Source of the DNA: Bdellovibrionota bacterium FG-1
Lineage (GTDB): Bacteria > Bdellovibrionota > UBA1018
Direction: 5' to 3'
NCBI GenBank assembly: GCA_051382295.1
Contig: JBBCAW010000004.1
Location: 1-64,000, forward strand
Length of the DNA: 64,000 nucleotides
The position numbers and the translations under genes were made by a program. The notes beneath the pieces are model-generated. The model ran no database searches and was not told where the DNA came from. It saw only the letters and a list, made by a program, of their open reading frames with translations. Of this stretch, positions 22,207-54,285 are shown piece after piece; the stretch's first letter is position 1; every line of letters begins with the position of its first letter.

Positions 22207-23577
22207 ATGAAAAGCGAGTTACGCGAAAAAGTCTTGAAAGAAATCAAAGATTCCTCTCACCAAAAAGTCAAAGTCGCCATCACGGACATCGACGGAGTTC
22301 TTCGTGGTAAATACCTCGCTAAAGAAAAGTTTCTTTCAGCGGCGGAGACCGGTTTTGGCTTCTGCAATGTGATCTTTGGCTGGGATTCTTCAGATGTTTG
22401 TTATGATAATGGCCGGTACACTGGCTGGCACTCGGGCTACCCCGATGCCGTGGCCCATATCGATCTTTCCACTTTTCGAAAAATTCCCTGGGAAAATGGC
22501 CTTCCGTTCTTTTTGGCGGATTTTCAAGAAGAGGGAACCCGCCGCCCCCTGGAGGTCTGTCCCCGACAGCTCCTCAAAAAGGTCATCACGCACGCTGAGA
22601 AAGCCGGTTATCGTGCCAGTATCGGAATGGAATTTGAGTGGTTTAACTTCAAAGAAACCCCCCAATCCATCGCGGAAAAAAAATTCGTTTCGCCGGAACC
22701 CATCACGCCCGGGATGTTTGGTTATTCGATCCTTCGCGCGAGCCTGAACCAGCCCTTTTTCTCGGCGCTCATGGATGAAATGCGGGAGTTTCGTGTGCCG
22801 ATCGAGGGCCTTCACACCGAAACTGGGCCCGGCGTCTATGAAGCCGCGATCCTCTATACGGATGCGCTGGAAGCGGCCGACCGTGCTGTTCTTTTCAAGA
22901 CGGGAACCAAAGAAATCGCCTATCGGTTCGGCATGATGCCGACCTTTATGGCTAAGTGGAACTCTCAACTTCCAGGCTCAAGCGGTCATACCCATCAAAG
23001 CCTTTGGAATCTAACGAACGACAAAAACCTTTTCTTTGATGAACAAGATCCTCTCAAAATGAGCCAAATGTTTCGCCATTATATTGCCGGACAGCTTCAT
23101 TGCCTGCCCGAAATTCTTCCCTTTTTTGCTCCGACCATCAATAGCTATAAGCGATTGGTTGATGGCTATTGGGCTCCCACCAAGACCACGTGGGGCGTCG
23201 ATAATCGTACTACCGCCCTGCGCGCGATTTCAGGGAGCTCCAAATCTACTCGCCTTGAAACGCGAGTCCCAGGTGCCGACGTCAATCCTTACCTTGCTGT
23301 TGCGGCCTCGATTGCCAGCGGTCTTTATGGCGTGGAGAAAAAACTTGAACTCAAGGATGCCCCCATTAAAGGAAGCGCTTATCACGTCCCGCAAGGGAGT
23401 CGGCTCCCCCGAAGTCTTCAGGAGGCAACGAACCGCCTCAAAGATTCAGTCGTCGCACATGAAATTTTTGGAGAGGCCTTTGTCGATCATTTCGTCCGGA
23501 CCCGCGAATGGGAATGGCGCCAGTTTCAGGACAGTGTCACGCAGTGGGAACTTCAACGGTATTTTGAAATCATCTAA
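22207..23577 (+). CDS. Glutamine synthetase-like gamma-glutamylamide ligase (PuuA/GlnA4-like)
   Basis: DIDGVLRGK, EFEW, HTETGPGVYE, GSSGHTHQS, NSYKR, DNRT, ETRVPGAD, WELQRYFE. Clustered with a C26 hydrolase. Confidence 0.9.
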   Translation: MKSELREKVLKEIKDSSHQKVKVAITDIDGVLRGKYLAKEKFLSAAETGFGFCNVIFGWDSSDVCYDNGRYTGWHSGYPDAVAHIDLSTFRKIPWENGLPFFLADFQEEGTRRPLEVCPRQLLKKVITHAEKAGYRASIGMEFEWFNFKETPQSIAEKKFVSPEPITPGMFGYSILRASLNQPFFSALMDEMREFRVPIEGLHTETGPGVYEAAILYTDALEAADRAVLFKTGTKEIAYRFGMMPTFMAKWNSQLPGSSGHTHQSLWNLTNDKNLFFDEQDPLKMSQMFRHYIAGQLHCLPEILPFFAPTINSYKRLVDGYWAPTKTTWGVDNRTTALRAISGSSKSTRLETRVPGADVNPYLAVAASIASGLYGVEKKLELKDAPIKGSAYHVPQGSRLPRSLQEATNRLKDSVVAHEIFGEAFVDHFVRTREWEWRQFQDSVTQWELQRYFEII

Positions 23578-23615
23578 CTCAAGCAGTTATTCATTCACCT
23601 CAGGAGAATCGTCCA

Positions 23616-24791
23616 ATGAAATCAGTCACCACGTTCGACCCCAAAGCCCAGTATCGCTTTAGCTTTCCAACCCCTATCCATTTTGGCCCGGGAACAAGGA
23701 AACTCGTCGGTGCTCATCTCCGGGCCCAAGGCCTCAAAAAGCCGTTGATCGTGACGGATCGCGGGATTGCGGGCTTGCCCTTTCTGGAAGAAATCAAAAA
23801 TTCACTGAAAGAGCATGACTTGGCTCCCTCTGTTTTTTCAGAAATCTGGGGCAACCCAGTAAAAACTCAGGTCATCCAAGGCGTGGAGACCTACTGGAAG
23901 ACTGGGGCCGATTGTATCGTCGGTCTCGGCGGTGGTGCGGCCTTGGACGTAGCCAAGGCAATCGCTTTAATGATCCATCATCCGGGCGACCTCTTTGACT
24001 ACGAAGACGACAAGCCCGGTGCGCTCCCAGTCGACCGCGACATTCCTTATTGGGTCGCGCTTCCGACCACTGCTGGTACTGGAAGCGAAGTCGGTCGAAG
24101 TGCGGTGGTCTCGGATGATAAGACTCATGTCAAAAAGATCATTTTTTCGCCACGGCTCCTGGCCAAGGCGGTGTTTGCAGATGCTGAACTCACGATTGGA
24201 CTCCCTGCTACGATCACGGCCACCACCGGAATGGATGCCCTCACTCATTGCGTGGAAGCTTACCTGGCCAAGGGTTTTCACCCTATTTGCGATGGTATCG
24301 CGCTCGAAGGGGTTCGCCTTTGCGCCGAAAGCCTCGTTCAAGCCGTAAAAGAACCCAAAGACATTGCGGCTCGGAGTAAAATGCTCTTGGCTTCGATGAT
24401 GGGAGCGATTGCGTTTCAAAAAGGGTTGGGCATCACCCATTCCTGCGCGCACGCCCTTTCGACCGTGGCTGACATGCACCACGGCCTTGCCAATGGCATC
24501 ATGATCGATTTTGCGGTGGCCTTTAACGCCGAGACGGTTCCGGCTCGTTTTGAAATGATGGCCAAAGTCATAGGCCTTTCAGATACCAGCCCCAAGGGCT
24601 TCCTTCGGTGGCTTACCCAGCTCAAAAAAGACACCGGGATTCCGGCTTTGTTAACCGTTGCTGGCGTCAAAAAAGAACAGCTCCAAGCCCTCGCGGATAT
24701 TGCAATCGCAGACGCTTGCCACCCGAGCAATCCACGCCCTTGCACTCGCGAAGACTTTGTTCGCGTCTTCAGCCAAGCGATGGGAATTTAA
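23616..24791 (+). CDS. Iron-containing alcohol dehydrogenase
   Basis: GGGAALD, PTTAGTGSE, GMDALTHCVE, HSCAH, HHG. Confidence 0.95.
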   Translation: MKSVTTFDPKAQYRFSFPTPIHFGPGTRKLVGAHLRAQGLKKPLIVTDRGIAGLPFLEEIKNSLKEHDLAPSVFSEIWGNPVKTQVIQGVETYWKTGADCIVGLGGGAALDVAKAIALMIHHPGDLFDYEDDKPGALPVDRDIPYWVALPTTAGTGSEVGRSAVVSDDKTHVKKIIFSPRLLAKAVFADAELTIGLPATITATTGMDALTHCVEAYLAKGFHPICDGIALEGVRLCAESLVQAVKEPKDIAARSKMLLASMMGAIAFQKGLGITHSCAHALSTVADMHHGLANGIMIDFAVAFNAETVPARFEMMAKVIGLSDTSPKGFLRWLTQLKKDTGIPALLTVAGVKKEQLQALADIAIADACHPSNPRPCTREDFVRVFSQAMGI

Positions 24792-24804
24792 CGGGAGCCT
24801 CTGA

Positions 24805-25599
24805 ATGACGAAGCGTTTAAAAATTGGCCTTTCTGCCTGTTTTTTTCACGCTGATCCCCAGCGCGCGGTCTTCAAGGGCAAAACCTTGCTCTATGCTGAA
24901 GAATCGCTCGCTCATTGGATTATGAGCCAGGGAGCGCTCACCTACTTGATACCGTCGGTGGGCCCCCTGGTTCCCTTTGAACTCGGCGAACTGACTCAGG
25001 AACTCGATGGACTTGTGTTGGCCGGAGGGGCGGATCTTTCGCCCAAAAGCTATGGCCAAGAACCCTTGAAGCCCGAGTGGAAGGGCGACTGGGTTCGCGA
25101 TCAATACGAGATCAAGCTTGTCGAAGCCTTTGTGGCGCAAAAAAAACCCGTACTGGGGGTTTGCCGTGGAATGCAGCTCCTCAATGTCGCTTTTGGCGGC
25201 ACGCTCTTCCAAGACATCACGACTCAAGTGCCAGGGAGTTTAATGCATCGAAATTGGGACATCTACGATCATAACCGCCATCAGGCCGAAGTGATCCCAG
25301 GGTCCGAGTTAGAACGAGTTTTAGGCCCTCACCGTGGACGCACGATCAACAGCGTCCATCATCAAGGAGTCCAAACACTCGGACCCGAACTTGAAGTGAT
25401 GGCCAAATGTCCCGCAGACGGAATTGTTGAGGCCATAAGACACAAAGCCCCGACCCACTGGGTTTGGGGAATTCAATGGCATCCGGAATTTGAACACGAA
25501 ACCAAAAAAGTACTCAGTGCCGACGAAACCTTACTGGATTCTACGTCGGTACTTCGCGAATTTTTATCAGAAGCCCAAAAAAGGAGAACCCAACGATGA
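24805..25599 (+). CDS. Gamma-glutamyl-amide hydrolase (peptidase C26, PuuD-like)
   Basis: GGAD, LGVCRGMQLLNVA, NSVHHQ, QWHPE. Confidence 0.93.
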   Translation: MTKRLKIGLSACFFHADPQRAVFKGKTLLYAEESLAHWIMSQGALTYLIPSVGPLVPFELGELTQELDGLVLAGGADLSPKSYGQEPLKPEWKGDWVRDQYEIKLVEAFVAQKKPVLGVCRGMQLLNVAFGGTLFQDITTQVPGSLMHRNWDIYDHNRHQAEVIPGSELERVLGPHRGRTINSVHHQGVQTLGPELEVMAKCPADGIVEAIRHKAPTHWVWGIQWHPEFEHETKKVLSADETLLDSTSVLREFLSEAQKRRTQR

Positions 25600-26984
25600 G
25601 CTCGCTTGCAATCTACAACCCAGCCAACGGCCAGAAAATCAAAGACGTCCCCGCTGATACGACGGACAGTGTCCACCAAAAATATTTGACCGCAAAGGCA
25701 GGCCAAAAAAAGTGGGCCCAAGTGCCATTGGTCTCACGAATTGAAATGATGAAGAAATTTCGAGACAGCTTGGTCAAAGACAAGGAAGCGCTGGCCAAAA
25801 TCCTGACCTCGGAAATGGGCAAGCCCCTTGCTCAAGCGCGTAACGAAATCGGCGGGGTTTTAGGTCGTATTGATTTTATTATGGAGAACGTGGCGCGGAC
25901 CCTCGAAAACGAGACCGTTTACGATGACGTCTCTCAACGGATTCGTGAGCAGATTCGGTACGAACCCCTGGGCGTGGTGGCTAATATTTCGGCCTGGAAT
26001 TATCCCTACCTCGTGGGAGCCAATGTTTTTGTGCCGGCCCTTCTCACTGGCAATGCGGTCCTTTATAAGCCTTCTGAATTCGCGACGCTCACGGGCCTAG
26101 CGATCGCTGAACGCCTTCATGCCGCCGGAATCCCTCAAGACGTGTTTATTCCGGTCATTGGCGGAGGCTCGATCGGCGCCGCGCTCTTAGAGCAACCGAT
26201 TAATGGGGTGTTCTTTACGGGGTCGTACGCCACAGGCGCGAAGATTGCCGAGGCTGCAGCTCGCAAGATGATTAAGGTGCAGCTGGAATTGGGGGGCAAA
26301 GACCCGACCTACGTTTGCGAAGACGTGAACCTCAGTACGGTGGTGCCAGGGGTCGCGGATGGGGCCTTCTACAACACGGGGCAAAGCTGTTGCTCTGTTG
26401 AACGCATCTATGTCCACGAGAAGGTCTACGACGCTTTTGTGGACTCCTTTGTACGCGAAGTCCAAGCCTATAAAATGGGAGACCCAACTCAAGACTCAAC
26501 CTACATTGGCGCGATTACGCGTTCGGCGCAACTTGAAGTGCTCGAAAAACAGGTTCAAGACGCGGTCAAAAAGGGCGCCAAGCTTCTTTGTGGCGGCAAG
26601 CGTGCACAGGCCGCGGGCCTCGCCGGTGGCAACTTCTTTGAGCCGACGGTGCTTTCGAACGTGAATCACACGATGGAAGTGATGCGCGAAGAGAGCTTCG
26701 GTCCGATTATTGGAATTCAGAAAGTGAAGTCGGATGAAGAAGCGGTCGAACTCATGAACGACAGTGTGTATGGCTTAACAGCGGGTATTTACACGACCGA
26801 TGCCGCGCGTGCGGAGAAGGTCCTCAGCCAAGTCAACGCTGGGTCGGCCTATTGGAACTGCTGCGATCGCGTGAGCCCGCGCCTCCCTTGGTCGGGACGC
26901 GGTCATTCGGGGATGGGCGCGACGTTGTCATGGCTCGGGATTTTGGCCTTTGTGCAGCCGAAGGGTTGGCACTTGAAGGGGTGA
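25596..26984 (+). CDS. Aldehyde dehydrogenase
   Basis: WNYP, KPSE, FTGS, ELGGK, GQSCC, EESFGP. Confidence 0.96.
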   Translation: MSSLAIYNPANGQKIKDVPADTTDSVHQKYLTAKAGQKKWAQVPLVSRIEMMKKFRDSLVKDKEALAKILTSEMGKPLAQARNEIGGVLGRIDFIMENVARTLENETVYDDVSQRIREQIRYEPLGVVANISAWNYPYLVGANVFVPALLTGNAVLYKPSEFATLTGLAIAERLHAAGIPQDVFIPVIGGGSIGAALLEQPINGVFFTGSYATGAKIAEAAARKMIKVQLELGGKDPTYVCEDVNLSTVVPGVADGAFYNTGQSCCSVERIYVHEKVYDAFVDSFVREVQAYKMGDPTQDSTYIGAITRSAQLEVLEKQVQDAVKKGAKLLCGGKRAQAAGLAGGNFFEPTVLSNVNHTMEVMREESFGPIIGIQKVKSDEEAVELMNDSVYGLTAGIYTTDAARAEKVLSQVNAGSAYWNCCDRVSPRLPWSGRGHSGMGATLSWLGILAFVQPKGWHLKG

Positions 26985-28025: not shown

Positions 28026-29180
28026 ATGAACCGCTATCGGACCCTTCCCATTCAAAAAGATCTCGATAAAAAGATGGTTTGGGTGAGTGGTCCCCGACAA
28101 TGCGGAAAAACGACGCTCGCCCAGTTTTTTCTAAAAAATGAGACCTCGGGAATTTACCTCAACTGGGACGACCCCGACCATCGCAAAATCATCCTTGCCC
28201 GCAAATGGTCCGAAGATGCCGGTCTCATCGTGCTGGACGAAATCCACAAATACCCGAAATGGAAAAGTTGGCTCAAAGGAACCTACGACACCACCCATGA
28301 CCGCCACCGATTTTTGGTCACTGGCAGCGCCAGACTTGATGTCTATCGCCGAGGCGGTGACTCCATGCTCGGCAGATATCATGCCTGGCGACTCCATCCT
28401 TTCTGCATGAGTGAGCATCCCAAGGAACTTTCACGCGAAGAAGCCTTTCGACGCCTCATGACTGTGGGCGGGTTTCCCGAGATATTCCTCAGTGGTGACC
28501 TAGTCGAGGCCAAACGATGGAGACGAGAACGGCGAGAACTGGTTTTACGAGAGGACGTCCGAGACCTTGAACAGGTTCGGGATATTGCGCTTCTTTCGGT
28601 TCTCGTTGATCTCTTGGCCACGCGAGTCGGAGGACCCGTCGCCTTTTCGAACCTGGCCGAGGATCTTCAGGTCGCTCCAAAAACCGTCAAACATTGGGTG
28701 GAAATTCTGGAACGGATGTTTCTTTTTTTCCGGGTTTTGCCCTATTCAAAATCCCTTCCGCGGGCCATCAGCAAAGCGCCTAAAATATTTTTTTACGACA
28801 ACGGTGATGTAGAACTCTCCGACAAAAACAACGACCTAGGACCCCGGTTCGAGAATCTCGTCGCCACTCACCTTTTGAAAAGACTGCACTATTTAGAGGA
28901 TTCCACCGGAGATCGGTTCGAACTCAATTATCTATTGGATAAAGAGGGTCATGAAGTCGATTTTTTGATTGTTCAAAATCGTAAACCGGTCTGCCTGATC
29001 GAAGCAAAGTGGGGAGATTCATCCCCTTCAAAAAACCTCACGTACTTTGGCCAAAAACTGAACATCAAGAACCGCATTCAGCTCGTGGGCGACCTAAAAA
29101 AGGGCGGCGTTTATTCCAACATCTCCGTTCAACCGGCAGCCGAATGGTTGAGTCAACCGCTGGATCGTGTGGTGTTTTAG
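28026..29180 (+). CDS. AAA_14 ATPase with DUF4143 domain
   Basis: GPRQCGKTT, LDEIHK, VTGSA, FENLV, C-terminal EVDF...IEAK. Confidence 0.93.
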   Translation: MNRYRTLPIQKDLDKKMVWVSGPRQCGKTTLAQFFLKNETSGIYLNWDDPDHRKIILARKWSEDAGLIVLDEIHKYPKWKSWLKGTYDTTHDRHRFLVTGSARLDVYRRGGDSMLGRYHAWRLHPFCMSEHPKELSREEAFRRLMTVGGFPEIFLSGDLVEAKRWRRERRELVLREDVRDLEQVRDIALLSVLVDLLATRVGGPVAFSNLAEDLQVAPKTVKHWVEILERMFLFFRVLPYSKSLPRAISKAPKIFFYDNGDVELSDKNNDLGPRFENLVATHLLKRLHYLEDSTGDRFELNYLLDKEGHEVDFLIVQNRKPVCLIEAKWGDSSPSKNLTYFGQKLNIKNRIQLVGDLKKGGVYSNISVQPAAEWLSQPLDRVVF

Positions 29181-29376: not shown

Positions 29377-29829
29377 ATGTACATGAAAGAATTAGACTCA
29401 CTTGCCATCGAACAGGCTAATCGCCGCCTAAAGTCCATTCGTAAGGCGCTACCTGACACAAAAGTTCGCCCGGGTTGGATTCGCTACATGCGTCAGTCGC
29501 TGAGCATGACCTTAAAGCAACTTGCCACCCGTACTGGCCTGTCGATTCCGACCGTCGCCCAGGCAGAACGAGGAGAGGCTGTGGGCAAGGTCACCATTAA
29601 CACGCTTAAGACAATGGCCCAGGCGATGGATTGCGAACTCATCTATGCGTTTGTGCCGAAAACCGATCTCGACCAACTGATGAAAAAGGCCGCTCTCAAA
29701 AAGGCAGCAATCCTTCTGAGCACGGCAGACGTTCACATGACCCTCGAAGATCAACGCGTGAATGAGTCGGTGGAAAAGCGGATCGAACGCCTGGCCGAGA
29801 AACTTTTGAAGAAAGGAGACGTGTGGTGA
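29377..29829 (+). CDS. Mobile mystery protein A (XRE HTH)
   Basis: GWIRYMRQSLSMT, AERGE, MDCELIYAFVP, HMTLEDQ. Overlaps a Fic gene. Confidence 0.9.
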   Translation: MYMKELDSLAIEQANRRLKSIRKALPDTKVRPGWIRYMRQSLSMTLKQLATRTGLSIPTVAQAERGEAVGKVTINTLKTMAQAMDCELIYAFVPKTDLDQLMKKAALKKAAILLSTADVHMTLEDQRVNESVEKRIERLAEKLLKKGDVW

Positions 29830-30422
29830 ATAACTTTTTATTTAAAGATCGAGACGGCCAAACACCCTTACCGCCTGAGCTTCAAAAAGGCTTAAAGCCA
29901 AAGCACATCCAAACTATGGCTGAGCTCGATGAATACGAAGAGCAAAACATTGCATTAGGAATCGCGTGGCTCAAGGGCCAGAAAGATGGAGGCGTCACCT
30001 ATGATTTCTGGCTGAAGCTGCACAAACGCCTCTTTAGCGATGTTTGGAGGTGGGCGGGCGAAGTAAGAAAGCACGAGCTCAACAATCCTGACTTTCACTC
30101 GCCTCATCAGATTTGGACGGCACTGAGACAGCTAGAGGGGGACCTGGCCTACTGGATCAAAGAGAAGTCATTTTCCAAGGCCGAAACTGCGGCTCGTTTT
30201 CACGAAAGAATTGAAACGATTCACCCGTTCGCGAATGGGAATGGTCGCTTTGGACGAATTTTAGTCGAGTATTTCTGTGGAAAAAACGACTGGAAGGTTC
30301 CAACATGGGGACACGCTTTTAAGGACTCACCAAAGGACCGAAGAATGACTTATATCGCGTCTTTGGATCAAGCGCGTCGCAAAGGTGGTTACAAACGACT
30401 CGTTGAATTCATGTTTTCTTAA
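29823..30422 (+). CDS. Mobile mystery protein B (Fic domain)
   Basis: GQTPL, ELDEYEEQNI, LHKRLFSDVWRWAG, Fic motif HPFANGNGRFGR. Confidence 0.92.
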   Translation: MVNNFLFKDRDGQTPLPPELQKGLKPKHIQTMAELDEYEEQNIALGIAWLKGQKDGGVTYDFWLKLHKRLFSDVWRWAGEVRKHELNNPDFHSPHQIWTALRQLEGDLAYWIKEKSFSKAETAARFHERIETIHPFANGNGRFGRILVEYFCGKNDWKVPTWGHAFKDSPKDRRMTYIASLDQARRKGGYKRLVEFMFS

Positions 30423-46416: not shown

Positions 46417-48298
<1,882 letters not shown>

Positions 48299-48307
48299 TT
48301 GATTTTT

Positions 48308-49468
48308 TCACAGTTCATTAAATATATCCGTCCAAGGTAAGCACCGCACTTGACCCAACTTTTGTCGGCTTGGATCCCGAGATAGGTAATAAATTTTAGT
48401 GCTATCCGGCAGGTCAGCGGCAAGTTGCTCGAGCTTTCGAACTTCGATAGGATCGATCCGTAATGTAGATTTAATCTCAATTGCGAGATGTTGGCGACCT
48501 CGACTCAAGATCACATCAATCTCGCTGTCATCTTTTGTTTCCAAATAAGAAAATTGGTAATCAAGCTCATGATACGAGTTAAATCGAACCAACTCATTGA
48601 TCACCCAAGCTTCAAATGCCTCACCAAAAGCAGAGGTTCCGGAGATCAATGGACTGTGAATCATCCCCGCCAAAAAGCGCTGGACGCCACCGTCAAACCA
48701 GTAAAACTTTGGCGCTTTTCGCTGTTTTTTTCGAATAGAAGGACCAAACGGCAGAAGCCTTACTCCTAAGTATGTTTCTTCAAGAATATCAAAATATGAC
48801 TGAACGGTCTTGTTATCGGCACCTATGTCACGTGCAATCGCTTCATAATTAATCCGCTTACTATTCATTTGCGCCGCAATCTCAAGAAAGCCCTTAAAGG
48901 GGGCAAGATTTCGAACTAATTGTTCGACCAGTATTTCTTCTTTTAAATAAATTTGACAATAACTTCGAAGTCTTCGAATTCGCTCGGAAGAAGAGTGTGC
49001 GAAGTGAACACGAGGAAGCGTGCCCCAATTCAGGGCTGTCTCGAGTTCAAAATTCTTGCCCAATTCTTCACCCGAAAAGGGAAAAAGAGAAAACACAGCC
49101 GCTCGTCCGCCGAGTAAATTGGCATGCCCTCGTTTAAGTTTTCGCGCGGATGACCCCGACAGGACAAAACGAAGTCCTCGACGCTCAATGAGTCGATGAA
49201 CCAAATCCAAAAGGCGCGGGACTTTTTGAACCTCATCGATAATGATCCAATCGGGCTTATTTTTCTCTTCGATTAAGAGCTCAATCTCTGATTCCAGGGC
49301 TTTTGGATTTCTGAGGTAACGGTCTTCGATGTCAGGGTCCAAAAGGTCCAGCCATAGACAATTCTGCTCAGAAAATCGATCCTGAAGCCAAGTCGACTTT
49401 CCAGTTCCGCGCGCACCGAAGAGAAAAAAGCTTTCGTTGATTTTCGGACTCAGCTTTCTCTGGATCAT
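48308..49468 (-). CDS. AAA_14 ATPase with DUF4143 domain (second, divergent)
   Basis: GARGTGKS, IDEVQK, SGSSARKL, PKFYWFD, EIDV...IEIK. Confidence 0.92.
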   Translation of the reverse strand: MIQRKLSPKINESFFLFGARGTGKSTWLQDRFSEQNCLWLDLLDPDIEDRYLRNPKALESEIELLIEEKNKPDWIIIDEVQKVPRLLDLVHRLIERRGLRFVLSGSSARKLKRGHANLLGGRAAVFSLFPFSGEELGKNFELETALNWGTLPRVHFAHSSSERIRRLRSYCQIYLKEEILVEQLVRNLAPFKGFLEIAAQMNSKRINYEAIARDIGADNKTVQSYFDILEETYLGVRLLPFGPSIRKKQRKAPKFYWFDGGVQRFLAGMIHSPLISGTSAFGEAFEAWVINELVRFNSYHELDYQFSYLETKDDSEIDVILSRGRQHLAIEIKSTLRIDPIEVRKLEQLAADLPDSTKIYYLSRDPSRQKLGQVRCLPWTDIFNEL

Positions 49469-49560
49469 ACTCCATATTGTTACGCCAAAAATGGACCAAG
49501 GTCAAGCACTTGAAGGCAGCCGGTAACGGACACTGAGCCGCCGGGTGCATCGGATCTCAC

Positions 49561-49597
49561 CCAACTATACCCGATTATGTCCGATTACACCCGATTA
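49561..49597. repeat. 10-bp-period direct repeats (ccgatta x3)
   Basis: ccgatta at 49571, 49581 and 49591, with degenerate ccaacta at 49561. Confidence 0.8.
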
Positions 49598-49696
49598 GGC
49601 CCCCTATCAATTCACCGGGCACTCAGAAGTGTCTCCGATCAAACTCATTGAGGTAAGTACTTAAGGAACGAATTCCCGTGCTCATTTTGACACTAC

Positions 49697-51385
49697 GTGT
49701 TAACACTCTCCACCGTGACCGTCTACCCGAAGTCCTCGCAGTACATCGTTGAGTATTTAAAGAGCCTAAAAATTCGGGCCGTTTTTGGCGTGGGCGGCGC
49801 CAACATTGAAGACCTCTACGATGCTCTATTTCACCAGGGCGAGGGCATTCAAGCCGTGGTCGCCAAACACGAATTTTCGGCCGGGACGATGGCGGATGCC
49901 TACAGCCGATTTACCGGCGGACTCGGCGTGGTCATGGCGACATCAGGAGGCGGCGCCTTTAATCTCGTCCCCGCGCTTTGCGAATCTTTGGCCTCAGCCG
50001 TCCCGATTTTAGCGATCGTGGGACAAGTCCCAACCGAACAGGAAGGGCAGGGGGGGTTTCAAGACTCGAGCGGGCGAGGCGGTTCAGTCGATGCTGAAAA
50101 GATCTTTCAAGGCGCTTCCAAATTTTGCCGCTCCGTCAGAACCGCCGAGGAGCTGCCAGCGGCCCTCCAAGATGCCGTCGCCTCTGCACTGAGCCATCCA
50201 CAAGGTCCCGCAGTTTTGCTGATTCCAAAGGACATCATGTGCGCCCCCCAAAAGGTGCTCCGGACCTTTTGGTTGAGTCCTGCGTCATTTGTTTCCTCTC
50301 AAGCAGTCCCGGAGGCTGCAGCGCTTTTGAGTTCCAAGAGAACCCTCATCATCTGCGGCGAAGGCGTCACGCGAACAAACTCCCAAAGCCTCGTCGCCCA
50401 AATCGCTGAGCAGCTTGACGCCTCCGTTGCGGTCACGGCTTCCGGAAAATCCGCGTTTGATCACCAGAGCCCTCGATTTGTCGGAGTCACTGGCGTCATG
50501 GGCCATACATCTGTCATCGAAAGCCTCAAATCCGCCGAGGCCTGCCTCCTGATCGGCACGCGAATGGCCGTCATGAATCGATTTGGGCTAGACGACTTAT
50601 TGGCTCGGACCCCGGTCATTTCCGTAGGCCCGCAAAACCACTTTTTGCGGCCCCAGCCCTCAAATTTCTCGATCGAGGGCGATATTTCACCCAACCTCAA
50701 GGCGCTCATTGAAGCTCTCAAAACCGCCACCGCACCAGATCTCCCAAAAGCACCCCAGCCTCATTTTACGCCTCAAACCCTGAAACCCACGTATCTCGGC
50801 CCAAAAAATCCGGCTTTCTCATCGATGGATGAATTCATGCATCTCCTCCAAGAGGAACTCGAACCTCAAAGCAATATCCTCTGCGATGCCGGTAATGTTG
50901 GTGCTTCGGCCGTACATTATCTTCGTCTTCCCAGTAAAACCCAATTTTGCATCGCTTTGGGAATGGGCGGCATGGGCTATAGCTTTGGCGCGGCCATCGG
51001 AGCGGCACTTGCCAACTCCAAGAGGACTTACGTGATTGCAGGCGACGGCGCTTTTTTCATGCACGGGTCTGAAATTCACACCTCCGTGGAATTGAACCTT
51101 CCCATCACCTATTTGATCTTTAACAACAACGCCCACGCAATGTGCATTACTCGTGAAGTTCTCCTCTACAATACCGCGTGCTCCTACAACCGTTTTAAGC
51201 CCGTCAATCTATCCGCCGGCATGGGCGCGATGTTTGCAAATCTTCCCACTTTTGGAGTCCGACGCCCCGAGAAATTCCGCACGGCCCTCCAACAAATCAA
51301 AAGTCTGCAGGGCCCGGCTTTTATTTCGATTGAAACCGACCCCGACGAAATCCCGCCTTTTATTTCTTTTTTGGAGAAAGCATGA
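49697..51385 (+). CDS. ThDP-dependent carboligase (acetolactate-synthase-like; NzsH/CqsB3-like by context)
   Basis: Catalytic KHE, GDGAFFMHG...NNN ThDP motif. First gene of a three-gene overlapping operon. Confidence 0.9.
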   Translation: MLTLSTVTVYPKSSQYIVEYLKSLKIRAVFGVGGANIEDLYDALFHQGEGIQAVVAKHEFSAGTMADAYSRFTGGLGVVMATSGGGAFNLVPALCESLASAVPILAIVGQVPTEQEGQGGFQDSSGRGGSVDAEKIFQGASKFCRSVRTAEELPAALQDAVASALSHPQGPAVLLIPKDIMCAPQKVLRTFWLSPASFVSSQAVPEAAALLSSKRTLIICGEGVTRTNSQSLVAQIAEQLDASVAVTASGKSAFDHQSPRFVGVTGVMGHTSVIESLKSAEACLLIGTRMAVMNRFGLDDLLARTPVISVGPQNHFLRPQPSNFSIEGDISPNLKALIEALKTATAPDLPKAPQPHFTPQTLKPTYLGPKNPAFSSMDEFMHLLQEELEPQSNILCDAGNVGASAVHYLRLPSKTQFCIALGMGGMGYSFGAAIGAALANSKRTYVIAGDGAFFMHGSEIHTSVELNLPITYLIFNNNAHAMCITREVLLYNTACSYNRFKPVNLSAGMGAMFANLPTFGVRRPEKFRTALQQIKSLQGPAFISIETDPDEIPPFISFLEKA

Positions 51386-52041
51386 CCGAAAATCCATCCG
51401 TCCAAGACATCGCCCAAGATATTGCAAAAATCCCCGGTCTTCTTCGGGTCGAGACCAGCGGAAAGCCCGAAATGATGAGCGCGCTTTCGGAGCTCACTCA
51501 TAGCGTCTACAAGCATCATGAAGTTTACGGAACCTATTGCTCCATCGAAGAATACATCGACTGTCCACCCGAAAAAGTTTTTCGCTACCTCGCGGAACTC
51601 GACAGCCTCAACGAATGGAGCTTCAGCGTTCGAGGCTTCGAAAAGACCGGAAAATCAGATGTTTTTGTGGGGAAGGATAAAATTGGCGACAACACCACCA
51701 TTCACTGCCGGGTCACCTCGAACCCCGATGCGATGACCGTGGATTATCACTGCGCCTGGGATCAGGGCGAACACCTCTGGATGATCTACCTCATGCGCGT
51801 GATTCCGGCCGAACTTGTTTTTAACAAACCCGGCTCAGTGGTTCTTTGGACCAATTGCCGCCATCCCTTTTACGATAAAAACCCATTTCCGGAACTCGCC
51901 CCGAAAGGACGACCTTGGGTCGGTGAATTTTGGGATATGTTCTATGCCGGCCATACTGTTGAAATGCAGAATCTGAAAAAGATTCTCGAGTATCGTCACC
52001 AAAATGGACTCCCCATGGGTCCGCACCGAGGTGTTTTGTGA
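51382..52041 (+). CDS. SRPBCC-fold cyclase, carbazole synthase NzsI/CqsB2-like
   Basis: 219 aa with YIDCPPE, TVDYHCAWDQGEHLWMIY, WTNCRHPFY and FYAGH motifs, recalled as typical of this family. Flanked by ThDP and KAS-III genes. Confidence 0.75.
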   Translation: MTENPSVQDIAQDIAKIPGLLRVETSGKPEMMSALSELTHSVYKHHEVYGTYCSIEEYIDCPPEKVFRYLAELDSLNEWSFSVRGFEKTGKSDVFVGKDKIGDNTTIHCRVTSNPDAMTVDYHCAWDQGEHLWMIYLMRVIPAELVFNKPGSVVLWTNCRHPFYDKNPFPELAPKGRPWVGEFWDMFYAGHTVEMQNLKKILEYRHQNGLPMGPHRGVL

Positions 52042-53045
52042 CTCCCATGAGTTTAGCTGGGGTTGCCAGCTTTCTTCCTGAAACCATCATTGAGAACGAA
52101 TTTTTCGGGGAGGCCATTAAGACCACTAAACAAAAAATGTTCCTCGGAGTGCAACGGCGCAGACACGTGCAGCGCAATGAAACCGCGGCCAGCATGATTC
52201 ACCAGGCTTCGAGTAAGCTCATTGAAAAACTCAACCTTGATCCCGAAAAAGACATCGACATTTTGCTCACCAATGTCTCCTTGCCGGATGAACCTTTTTT
52301 GGGCTGTGGTCCCTCTGTGAGCCATCTTCTCAACACCCGAGCCCGTTGGGTCATTGATGTCCACAGCGCGGGTTGTGTATCCTTTATCTATATGATGGAC
52401 CTTGCTCGCGCACTTATGACCGCCTATGGCGCAAAAAGCGCGTTGATCTGTAATGTCCAAAATGCCGCTGGACAGATTTTTTCACAGCCCCAGATTCGCA
52501 AAAAACCCCAAGCCGCCGTGCCCGGGGATGGCTGTGGCGTTGGCTATTTTACGGCCTCGAACGAAAACCCCGTCCTCTCGCTCGTTCATCATTGCTTTGG
52601 GGCCAATGCGAAAGACATGTTTTCGACCAACGATGAACATCGCAAATATTTCGAACCGGGGGTTAGCGAGGGCTACATCGACTTTAATGAAGCCAAGATC
52701 GCTTCGATCACTTCGCGCGGCAATCGCCTGGTTCCTGATGTCATTCAAGAGGCCTGTCAGCTCGCCCAAATGAAAACCTCTCAAATCGATGCGCTGGTTA
52801 CGAATCAGCCGAATCCCTATTTTTTAAGAAATTGGCGAGAGGCGCTGGAACTTCCGCCTGAAAAACACTTCGATACGTTTTCGGAATACGGTAATCTCTT
52901 TGGGGCCGGGATTCCAATCACCTTGGAGCAGGCGATCCAAAACGGCAAACTGAAGACGGGTTCAAACCTGGTTTTAGGCGGTTTTTCACACGCGGGAGAT
53001 TTCGCGGCCGCTACGGTGATCAGATGGAATCAAAGCCGAGGCTAA
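52038..53045 (+). CDS. FabH-like ketosynthase III family protein (NzsJ/CqsB1-like by context)
   Basis: AGCVSF catalytic Cys, GDG, TNQPN in place of FabH HQAN, YGNL. Confidence 0.88.
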   Translation: MTPMSLAGVASFLPETIIENEFFGEAIKTTKQKMFLGVQRRRHVQRNETAASMIHQASSKLIEKLNLDPEKDIDILLTNVSLPDEPFLGCGPSVSHLLNTRARWVIDVHSAGCVSFIYMMDLARALMTAYGAKSALICNVQNAAGQIFSQPQIRKKPQAAVPGDGCGVGYFTASNENPVLSLVHHCFGANAKDMFSTNDEHRKYFEPGVSEGYIDFNEAKIASITSRGNRLVPDVIQEACQLAQMKTSQIDALVTNQPNPYFLRNWREALELPPEKHFDTFSEYGNLFGAGIPITLEQAIQNGKLKTGSNLVLGGFSHAGDFAAATVIRWNQSRG

Positions 53046-53049
53046 GGCT

Positions 53050-54285
53050 CTAAATCATCGCTTTGGGATTAAAAAACCGCGCCACGGGTGAAACCTCGCC
53101 ACCGCTGATGATATCGGCCAGGAGTTCGGCTGAACCATGACCCCACGAAAATCCATGCCCCGTATAACCGGCACAAGAATAAATCCGTTGCGAAGTCGTA
53201 TTTCCAATAAAAGGAAGGCCCGTCCGACTGGCTGCCATGATGCCCGACCAACTGTACTCCCACTGGATCTCTTCATGGATGTCGTAAAATTCTTGGGCGA
53301 AATTTTTGAGGCCTTGCTCGATGTGAGGATTGGTCTCAAGCGAGTAGGTTCCTACTTCACCCGTCTCGGAATGATTGCGCCAGCCTCCCAGGACTAACCG
53401 ATTATCGGCTGAAATAATGGCGTATTCATACCCATGGTCGAACGAGTGGGGATATTTGACCTTAAAATCATGGCGAAGCGGCTTGGAGGCGATCATTTGC
53501 CCTCGAAACGGATCAATCAAACCTCGAGATTTAAAAAAATCAGAAAACAAAGGGGAGTAGGCATTGGCAGCGATGACTACGGCATCAGCCTGAGTCAAGC
53601 CTCGTGCGGTCTTAATTTCCACGCCATCCGAATTTTCGTCAAGCGACAGGACCTGAACATTTGAGTAGTACTGGCCACCCGTCTTGAGAAAAGCCTCGAG
53701 CACGCCATTCCTAAATTTAACAGGATGCGCCTGCGCGGAACCCGCCTCAAAGCGCGCTCCAAAACATTTTCGGAACCCAAGAGCTTGAATGGTGGCCGCA
53801 TCCACATAGTCGGACTGAAAGCCCATTCGATTGAGCAACTCCACGGACTCGCGGCATTCGCGGTCTTCGACTTCCGAGACCGAAATGACTAAATACCCAT
53901 CGCGCCGATATTCAGCGTCAATTCCGAGCGTTTGAATCGTGGCCTCGACTTTATTGCAAATATCGATGGAGTGCTGCCAAAGCTCTTTTGCCTTTGTTTC
54001 ACCGTGAATTTCCACCATGGCTTTCATGGATTCGACGGTCCCAAAAAGGATATGCCCACAATTGCGGTAAGAAGCGGACTCTTCAGCCTTATCGTCGATA
54101 ATGACCACGTCTTCGAACCCGCGTTGGTTGAGAAAGTACCCGACGCTCGCACCGGTCAGGCCGGACCCGATCACCGCCACCGAGGCATGAGAGGGGAGTT
54201 CACGCGTGTTTCCGGTGAGGATCGGCACTTCCATCCAATAGGAGTTTGAATAACGATTGGCGCCTTGGCTTTGAACTGAAGTCAT
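53050..54285 (-). CDS. FAD-dependent oxidoreductase (DAO family, PuuB/OrdL-like)
   Basis: SYW, GSGLTG, ASYRNCG, WSGIM, GYTGHG. Confidence 0.9.
   Translation of the reverse strand: MTSVQSQGANRYSNSYWMEVPILTGNTRELPSHASVAVIGSGLTGASVGYFLNQRGFEDVVIIDDKAEESASYRNCGHILFGTVESMKAMVEIHGETKAKELWQHSIDICNKVEATIQTLGIDAEYRRDGYLVISVSEVEDRECRESVELLNRMGFQSDYVDAATIQALGFRKCFGARFEAGSAQAHPVKFRNGVLEAFLKTGGQYYSNVQVLSLDENSDGVEIKTARGLTQADAVVIAANAYSPLFSDFFKSRGLIDPFRGQMIASKPLRHDFKVKYPHSFDHGYEYAIISADNRLVLGGWRNHSETGEVGTYSLETNPHIEQGLKNFAQEFYDIHEEIQWEYSWSGIMAASRTGLPFIGNTTSQRIYSCAGYTGHGFSWGHGSAELLADIISGGEVSPVARFFNPKAMI

Follow-up and report, generated by a model that had tools for sequence, protein, structure and literature searches.

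The three genes and the encoded enzymes

The window analysed here is the 64,000-nucleotide stretch at positions 1 to 64,000 of contig JBBCAW010000004.1 from Bdellovibrionota bacterium FG-1, and it carries a forward-strand operon of three genes related to the core of the cqs and nzs carbazole clusters of Streptomyces. The first gene (49697..51385, +, 562 aa) encodes a thiamine diphosphate (ThDP)-dependent carboligase of the NzsH/CqsB3 family, the second (51382..52041, +, 219 aa) an SRPBCC-fold cyclase related to CqsB2/NzsI, and the third (52038..53045, +, 335 aa) a condensing enzyme resembling beta-ketoacyl-acyl carrier protein (ACP) synthase III (KAS-III), sister to CqsB1/NzsJ. From the sequences, all three genes appear to share an ancestral stock with the carbazole core, and the KAS and the cyclase form a separate clade. 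By analogy with the characterised clusters, the operon probably turns scavenged tryptophan, together with pyruvate and an acyl thioester, into an unprenylated 1-alkyl-2-methyl-carbazole that bears oxygen at C3 and possibly also at C4.

The ThDP and cyclase genes meet in an ATGA stop/start overlap (51382..51385, +) with a GGAG ribosome-binding-like site directly 5', and the cyclase and KAS genes in a GTGA overlap (52038..52041, +). The trio joined by 4-nt overlaps, as given in a preliminary description of this DNA, is read at both junctions, the second being contingent on GTG 52038 as the KAS start; a 332-aa database copy fits the alternative start ATG 52047.

In the case of the cyclase, the Pfam Polyketide_cyc2 profile matches slightly short of its cut-off (E 1.5e-5), and the carbazole synthase CqsB2 (6ipv) is the sole significant match among 177,635 PDB sequences (E 5.9e-50). 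With an AlphaFold model built from 80 input sequences (pLDDT 91), CqsB2 stands far ahead of other Bet v1-like folds, both in Foldseek (first, E 6.6e-21; next 1e-7) and in VIA-align (Z 21.4, root-mean-square deviation 2.3 over 166 residues; next Z 13.1). Similarity of the SRPBCC protein to CqsB2, which the preliminary description had proposed from motifs, is present in sequence and in fold. The catalytic residues of CqsB2 are Glu105, Tyr144, Tyr172, His206, and Glu209 (PMC7466098). By residue count along the alignment, Y136, Y164, H191, and E194 of the cyclase correspond to Y144, Y172, H206, and E209, and D99 occupies the position of Glu105, a conservative change, so that four of the five catalytic residues are kept.

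The KAS-III-like enzyme matches Pfam ACP_syn_III and falls below the cut-off of the FabH model TIGR00747 (105 vs. 292 bits). Its structural model has a FabH fold (TM-score about 0.85); the Foldseek matches listed are of FabH type only, with no CqsB1 or CybF structure among them. In FabH, the active-site His and Asn assist decarboxylation. Residues 255–259 of the enzyme read TNQPN where FabH chains read HQAN, and Cys113-Asn256-Asn286 replaces the Cys-His-Asn active site. A tree was built to which five genomes, the host and the cqs-type loci contributed 25 other KAS-III-like rows; three duplicate rows and the short rows were excluded. The clade of the query (17 rows) and the CqsB1 type (4 rows) each have a support of 100/99 and are united at 100/96, and the query KAS is sister to the CqsB1 group, not within it.

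The ThDP enzyme has the Pfam TPP_enzyme N, M, and C domains, with Glu59 and the GDG...NN motif intact, and scores under every NCBIfam cut-off shown for acetohydroxyacid synthase (AHAS), e.g., 223.5 vs. 538 bits for TIGR00118. Its top PDB matches are BbmA/CsmA. Among the plasmid matches listed, the cqs-type ThDP copy has 282 bits, vs. at most 190 for matches from outside the family. In a quick tree, 14 sister-clade and three CqsB3-type rows occupy one side of a branch with a support of 100, opposite 25 other ThDP enzymes, and the CqsB3-type rows nest with trio enzymes of Aquabacterium, Myxococcota, and Haliangiales. Because they nest among three sister-type trios, both clades share a ThDP stock. 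In these trees, which contained no CybE/CybF or authentic Nzs sequences, the ThDP enzyme falls with the CqsB3 type and not with IlvB, and the KAS with the CqsB1 type and not with FabH.

A sister clade of the cqs-type core

The cqs-type reference set comprised an Embleya plasmid locus (L082) and four Streptomyces loci (L123–L126). L082 has a 460-bit CqsB2 orthologue surrounded by KAS-III-like, ThDP, SQS_PSY prenyltransferase, and second KAS genes, and it is the strength of this match together with the neighbouring prenyltransferase that validates it as a reference. Four cqs-type loci are transcribed in the order KAS-cyclase-ThDP, opposite to the order of the query. The shared gene order claimed earlier for the FG-1 genes needs correction for the cqs type, all five cqs-type loci (the nzs cluster was not among them) having the reverse order. 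At L126 (4380–6185), a single 601-codon frame joins a KAS of the CqsB1 type to a cyclase of the CqsB2 type and is followed by the ThDP gene; a similar layout with the cyclase at the C-terminus is seen in P0136 (587 aa). The fusion in L126 is in keeping with the hand-over that has been proposed for an unstable intermediate.

Residues were counted over rows with at least 70% query coverage, gathered by similarity to the query and hence biased to close relatives. The catalytic Tyr/Tyr/His/Glu is kept in 90/90 sister cyclases, and Asp99 is likewise present in 90/90, vs. Glu in 5/5 cqs-type rows; residues 135 and 137 are Ile/Val and Leu in sister cyclases, and Arg and Tyr in the cqs-type rows. In the KAS, Cys113, Asn256, and Asn286 are found in 88/88 sister rows, and His stands at position 256 in 5/5 CqsB1-type rows. 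The His-to-Asn change reported in the preliminary description as TNQPN is borne out, and can now be read as a marker of the clade. Another position, His318, lies in a loop that reads GFGGG in FabH; it is invariant in the 88 sister enzymes and present in 3/5 CqsB1-type rows. The marker positions vary among more distant representatives. In the cyclase tree (118 rows, quick and with long-branch warnings, used for the cqs split and the Gram-negative neighbourhood only), the query lies apart from the cqs type, in a Gram-negative group with many Bdellovibrionota.

Compared with the cqs/nzs core (PMC7466098; 6ipv), the FG-1 operon has the same three enzyme families, the same cyclase fold and four of the five catalytic residues. 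Unlike cqs-type clusters, it includes no aminotransferase (CqsB7/NzsD), ACP, second KAS, prenyltransferase, or isopentenyl diphosphate isomerase. Since the triad His of the KAS, Glu105 of the cyclase, the gene order and the accessory genes all differ, the operon is not a strict cqs/nzs member. Its earlier designation as NzsH-I-J/CqsB3-2-1-like stands for the enzyme families, and has to be replaced by that of a distinct sister clade where a set of orthologues was implied.

Like the query, the carbazomycin cluster cbz has the core trio but neither an ACP of its own nor NzsF, and its acyl donor is proposed to come from primary metabolism (PMC11610953). Unlike the query, it has an aminotransferase, a short-chain dehydrogenase/reductase, a flavin adenine dinucleotide (FAD) protein, and an O-methyltransferase, and its cyclase, identical to CqsB2 at 141/207 positions, belongs to the cqs clade (PMC11610953). 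The absence of an ACP from cbz indicates that a bare trio can work. A bare sister-type trio is also found in Tsukamurella tyrosinosolvens (36/52/40% identical to the query), with a TrpB-like gene nearby. The minimal pathway of the preliminary description is real as a bare trio and is not exceptional, cbz lacking an ACP and no aminotransferase being listed for the Tsukamurella trio. Scytonemin enzymes ScyA/ScyC share an indolepyruvate ThDP carboligase and a cyclase with the query, and have no KAS step; the scytonemin hidden Markov models (HMMs) match weakly (NF035927, 171 vs. a cut-off of 1000; NF035924, 29.9 vs. 400). Homologous carbazole clusters were noted in Sorangium and Scytonema (PMC7466098); in the literature searched, no carbazole genes were reported in Bdellovibrionota.

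A GTDB scan confirmed at least 589 of 600 stretches, of which the best 80, picked by cyclase similarity, were analysed. All three genes are held by 76 of these loci, 70 in the query order and 6 in the order cyclase-KAS-ThDP, so the grouping is not due to chance. Cyclase relatives number 1,031 at 90% clustering and 151 at 50%, many of them fragments. Seeded searches within 7 kb found a P450 at 15 of the 80 loci, a methyltransferase at 16, a SigL-like sigma factor at 27, an acyl-AMP ligase at 8, and a class I/II aminotransferase at 52 (61 by looser clustering); a prenyltransferase was found in these searches at none of the 80 sister-ranked loci.

The sister clade occurs in 137/401 Mycobacteriaceae genomes, with full-length matches 46–61% identical to the query, except for one degenerate copy at 36%, a lone, non-sister gene in which Tyr136 and His191 are lost. 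Among 401 Streptomyces genomes 38 are positive, 34 with the sister type vs. 4 with the cqs type. Four of 301 Myxococcota genomes and nine of 401 in the host phylum, the host included, have it as well. The trio is absent from 60/60 nearest relatives searched, and it does not follow the conserved amn-mreB pair, within the stretch compared, in any of nine genomes of the same family; in one genome of the family (G700), a P450 comes after the trio. The enzyme logic was already known, and these comparisons add that most natural copies lie in a separate clade with an altered KAS triad and cyclase pocket.

Several neighbourhoods were also recorded. In many mycobacteria and nocardiae (L013, L016 and L020, among others), a SigL-like extracytoplasmic function sigma factor and a zinc-finger anti-sigma are encoded directly 5' of the operon, and at L063 only the cyclase gene comes after such a pair. 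A P450 adjoins the trio in several Bdellovibrionota loci and one of Planctomycetota (L006, L009, L015, L127, L130, L001), and L006 has a JmjC-type oxygenase beside it. The adjacent P450 or JmjC-type oxygenase suggests oxidised variants of the product.

Genomic setting and precursor supply

The upstream flank of the trio is a divergent AAA_14/DUF4143 ATPase gene (Pfam) at a distance of 228 nt, and the downstream flank a convergent DAO-family FAD oxidoreductase gene (Pfam) at 4 nt. As the preliminary description had stated, no ACP, aminotransferase, prenyltransferase, or regulator gene is adjacent, judged from the open reading frames and the Pfam matches of the flanks, and spacers of this length leave no room for an ACP, an aminotransferase or a regulator beside the trio. 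The FAD oxidoreductase found no support as a pathway member, and 74 family genomes yielded no orthologue of it at E<=1e-60. This oxidoreductase (53050–54285) and the genes at 22207–26984 of the window, which we take to be GlnA-like, amidotransferase, and aldehyde dehydrogenase-like genes, jointly resemble a gamma-glutamyl amine (Puu-type) route. The upstream ATPase (48308–49468) has a similar-looking counterpart at 28026–29180, near a helix-turn-helix/Fic-like pair at 29377–30422; the codon fit of both ATPases is poor (19th and 5th percentile, respectively).

On inspection of the sequence, the ThDP start GTG 49697 has no clear ribosome-binding site. Within 49664–49752 of the window, a GTG at 49678, out of frame and preceded by the Shine-Dalgarno-like sequence AAGGA, opens a 24-codon frame that overlaps the ThDP start; this is possibly a leader, a wrongly called start or an assembly error of one base. 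Promoter-like matches are at chance level (3 found vs. 2.6 expected), as is the terminator scan, and no flanking repeats stood out upstream (48200–49800 only).

The host assembly has a size of 4.44 Mb, a completeness of 97.7% and a contamination of 5.0%. In tblastn of the whole assembly, it has one copy of each trio protein and two distant KAS matches, and no ThDP paralogue was found in the genome by the same means. Contamination is unlikely as the source of the trio, given that the 139-kb contig holds the dcw cluster and mreB 95–98% identical to nine same-family genomes. Recent transfer is not supported by the G+C content of the trio (52.6 vs. 51.3%) or by its codon fit, which lies in the 76th–100th percentile among 1,479 long open reading frames of the host. 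The distribution marks the trio as patchily acquired, and its G+C content and codon fit mark the acquisition as old.

TrpA, TrpC, HisD, and IlvD were not found in the host, each search being positive in 14/14 control genomes. Contig C22 (42257–47811; L137) carries in a row an iorA-like gene (487 bits, below cut-off), iorB, an ADP-forming acyl-CoA ligase-like gene, and a HisC-like aminotransferase gene above cut-off, whose product is 42% identical to the aminotransferase adjoining a myxobacterial trio. The row is likely, from its gene content, to be an aromatic amino-acid catabolic operon. With no HisD found, aromatic amino acids are the more likely substrates of the HisC-like enzyme, and we infer that it is the best candidate source of indolepyruvate. 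Two FabH genes over cut-off are present elsewhere in the host, and a FabH lies in a fatty-acid cluster on contig C2. On contig C33 (44528–49139; L138), a divergent ketol-acid reductoisomerase (KARI)-like gene heads a panB-coaX-coaBC-panC operon and is likely, given this position, to act as a ketopantoate reductase.

The proposed product and its alternatives

The proposed mechanism is modelled on reconstituted cqs/nzs chemistry (PMC7466098). Tryptophan would be converted to indolepyruvate, which the ThDP enzyme would couple with pyruvate; the KAS-like enzyme would then perform a decarboxylative acylation with an acyl thioester, CqsB1 taking acyl-CoA as well as acyl-ACP (PMC7466098), and the cyclase would close the ring with addition of water at C4. 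Such a route would be redox-neutral and lead to a 3,4-catechol that is oxidised by air. With no tailoring gene in the operon, a 3,4-catechol/ortho-quinone of the carbazoquinocin kind would be formed by default, and a 3-hydroxy product would need hydride supplied from beyond the operon. The route to mono-oxygenated carbazoles, including a ring-A reduction step, was called unidentified in a 2020 review (PMC7466098). The most likely role of the product, by analogy with known bacterial carbazoles, would be that of a lipophilic antioxidant.

A number of points weigh against this assignment. The query proteins are distant from those of L123–L126 (31–33% identity for the ThDP enzyme, 41–42% for the cyclase, and 23–26% for the KAS), and to those of L082 the respective values are 34/41/23%. 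To judge from the alignments, the loss from the KAS of the triad His that 5/5 CqsB1-type proteins keep could mean another substrate or another ring, and so could the changes near the catalytic Tyr of the cyclase (Glu105 to Asp, Arg to Ile/Val, Tyr to Leu). Without TrpA and TrpC the tryptophan supply depends on uptake, and the indolepyruvate:ferredoxin oxidoreductase (ior) operon on C22 would compete for indolepyruvate. In the literature searched, with subscription papers mostly outside its scope, no product of the sister clade was demonstrated. Lipocarbazoles are made by Tsukamurella pseudospumae (PMC11387468, PMC7466098), and the link of the clade to them is at the level of the genus only, through a different Tsukamurella species; no gene was tied to lipocarbazoles or other 3-oxygenated bacterial carbazoles in the literature searched.

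The same three-step logic may instead serve a different scaffold: if another aryl- or alkyl-pyruvate were used, or if the altered cyclase closed another ring, the product would be an aromatic other than a carbazole or an acyl-acyloin with an open chain. This is rather unlikely. It would agree with the substitutions fixed relative to the cqs clade in the KAS (88/88) and the cyclase (90/90), with the long branches between the two clades, with the use of other keto acids by Clostridium homologues of NzsH (PMC9822442), and with the aryl-pyruvate catabolic operon of the host, which is not tryptophan-specific as far as tested. However, four of the five CqsB2 catalytic residues are invariant and the CqsB3-type enzymes nest among the ThDP enzymes of sister trios. 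The clusters seen in Mycobacteriaceae, presumably the GTDB family of the lipocarbazole genus Tsukamurella, are moreover of the sister type only. Very unlikely is an intact but silent or vestigial acquisition with no product in the host. The patchiness in the phylum (9/401 genomes), the lack of a clear ribosome-binding site at GTG 49697 and the chance-level promoter matches would suit it, but the three frames are whole, the catalytic residues are kept and the codon use is host-like.

A furanolide/butenolide route is a further, highly improbable reading, in which the KAS-like enzyme would O-acylate and cyclise the acid formed by the ThDP enzyme, as in CybE/CybF, with the SRPBCC protein as an accessory. 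Cyanobacterin CybE and CybF are likewise a ThDP and KAS-III-like pair, sharing the acyloin step that is followed by the KAS-III-like enzyme (PMC8777810, PMC12395478), and loss of the His assisting decarboxylation could favour a non-decarboxylative route. The cyb core is, however, described in the available text without an SRPBCC gene, and CybE/F use the indole substrate poorly, at about 1.2% (PMC8777810, PMC12395478); the cyclase, by contrast, accompanies the ThDP/KAS pair in 76/80 loci, though the loci were chosen by the cyclase. Two Gram-negative genomes have a ThDP enzyme and a divergent KAS-III-like gene with no cyclase (L226, L227). These are possibly furanolide-type pairs, and as such possible proxies for CybE/F; they are 20–30% identical to the query and lie outside its clade. 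Scarcely credible is primary metabolism, i.e., an acetolactate synthase and a FabH flanking a lipid-binding START protein by chance. AHAS and FabH are indeed the best generic HMM labels, the ThDP enzyme is the sole IlvB-like gene found in the host, and a KARI-like gene is present as well. Yet both scores are far under the cut-offs (224 vs. 538 and 105 vs. 292), no IlvD was found, the KARI-like gene belongs to the panB-coaX-panC operon, the two FabH genes over cut-off are elsewhere, and the trio is missing in the 60 relatives searched. The AHAS/FabH reading was rejected for its sub-cut-off scores, the lack of IlvD and the true FabH elsewhere.

The carbazole assignment also allows a wider and more doubtful reading, in which the sister clade would be the missing machinery of 3-hydroxy carbazoles such as the lipocarbazoles, and FG-1 a probable predator turning prey-derived tryptophan into an alkaloid of its own. 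The sister clade is far commoner than the characterised cqs clade, and the three-gene, 3.3-kb trio of a Gram-negative host with 51% G+C is an easy entry to its product. That product would bear on 3-hydroxy-carbazole biosynthesis, on the metabolites of mycobacteria and nocardiae, and on the small-molecule chemistry of Bdellovibrionota. If the wider reading is true, the FG-1 trio, free of tailoring genes and borne by an apparently tryptophan-auxotrophic host, would be the smallest test case for a clade found in about a third of the sampled Mycobacteriaceae.

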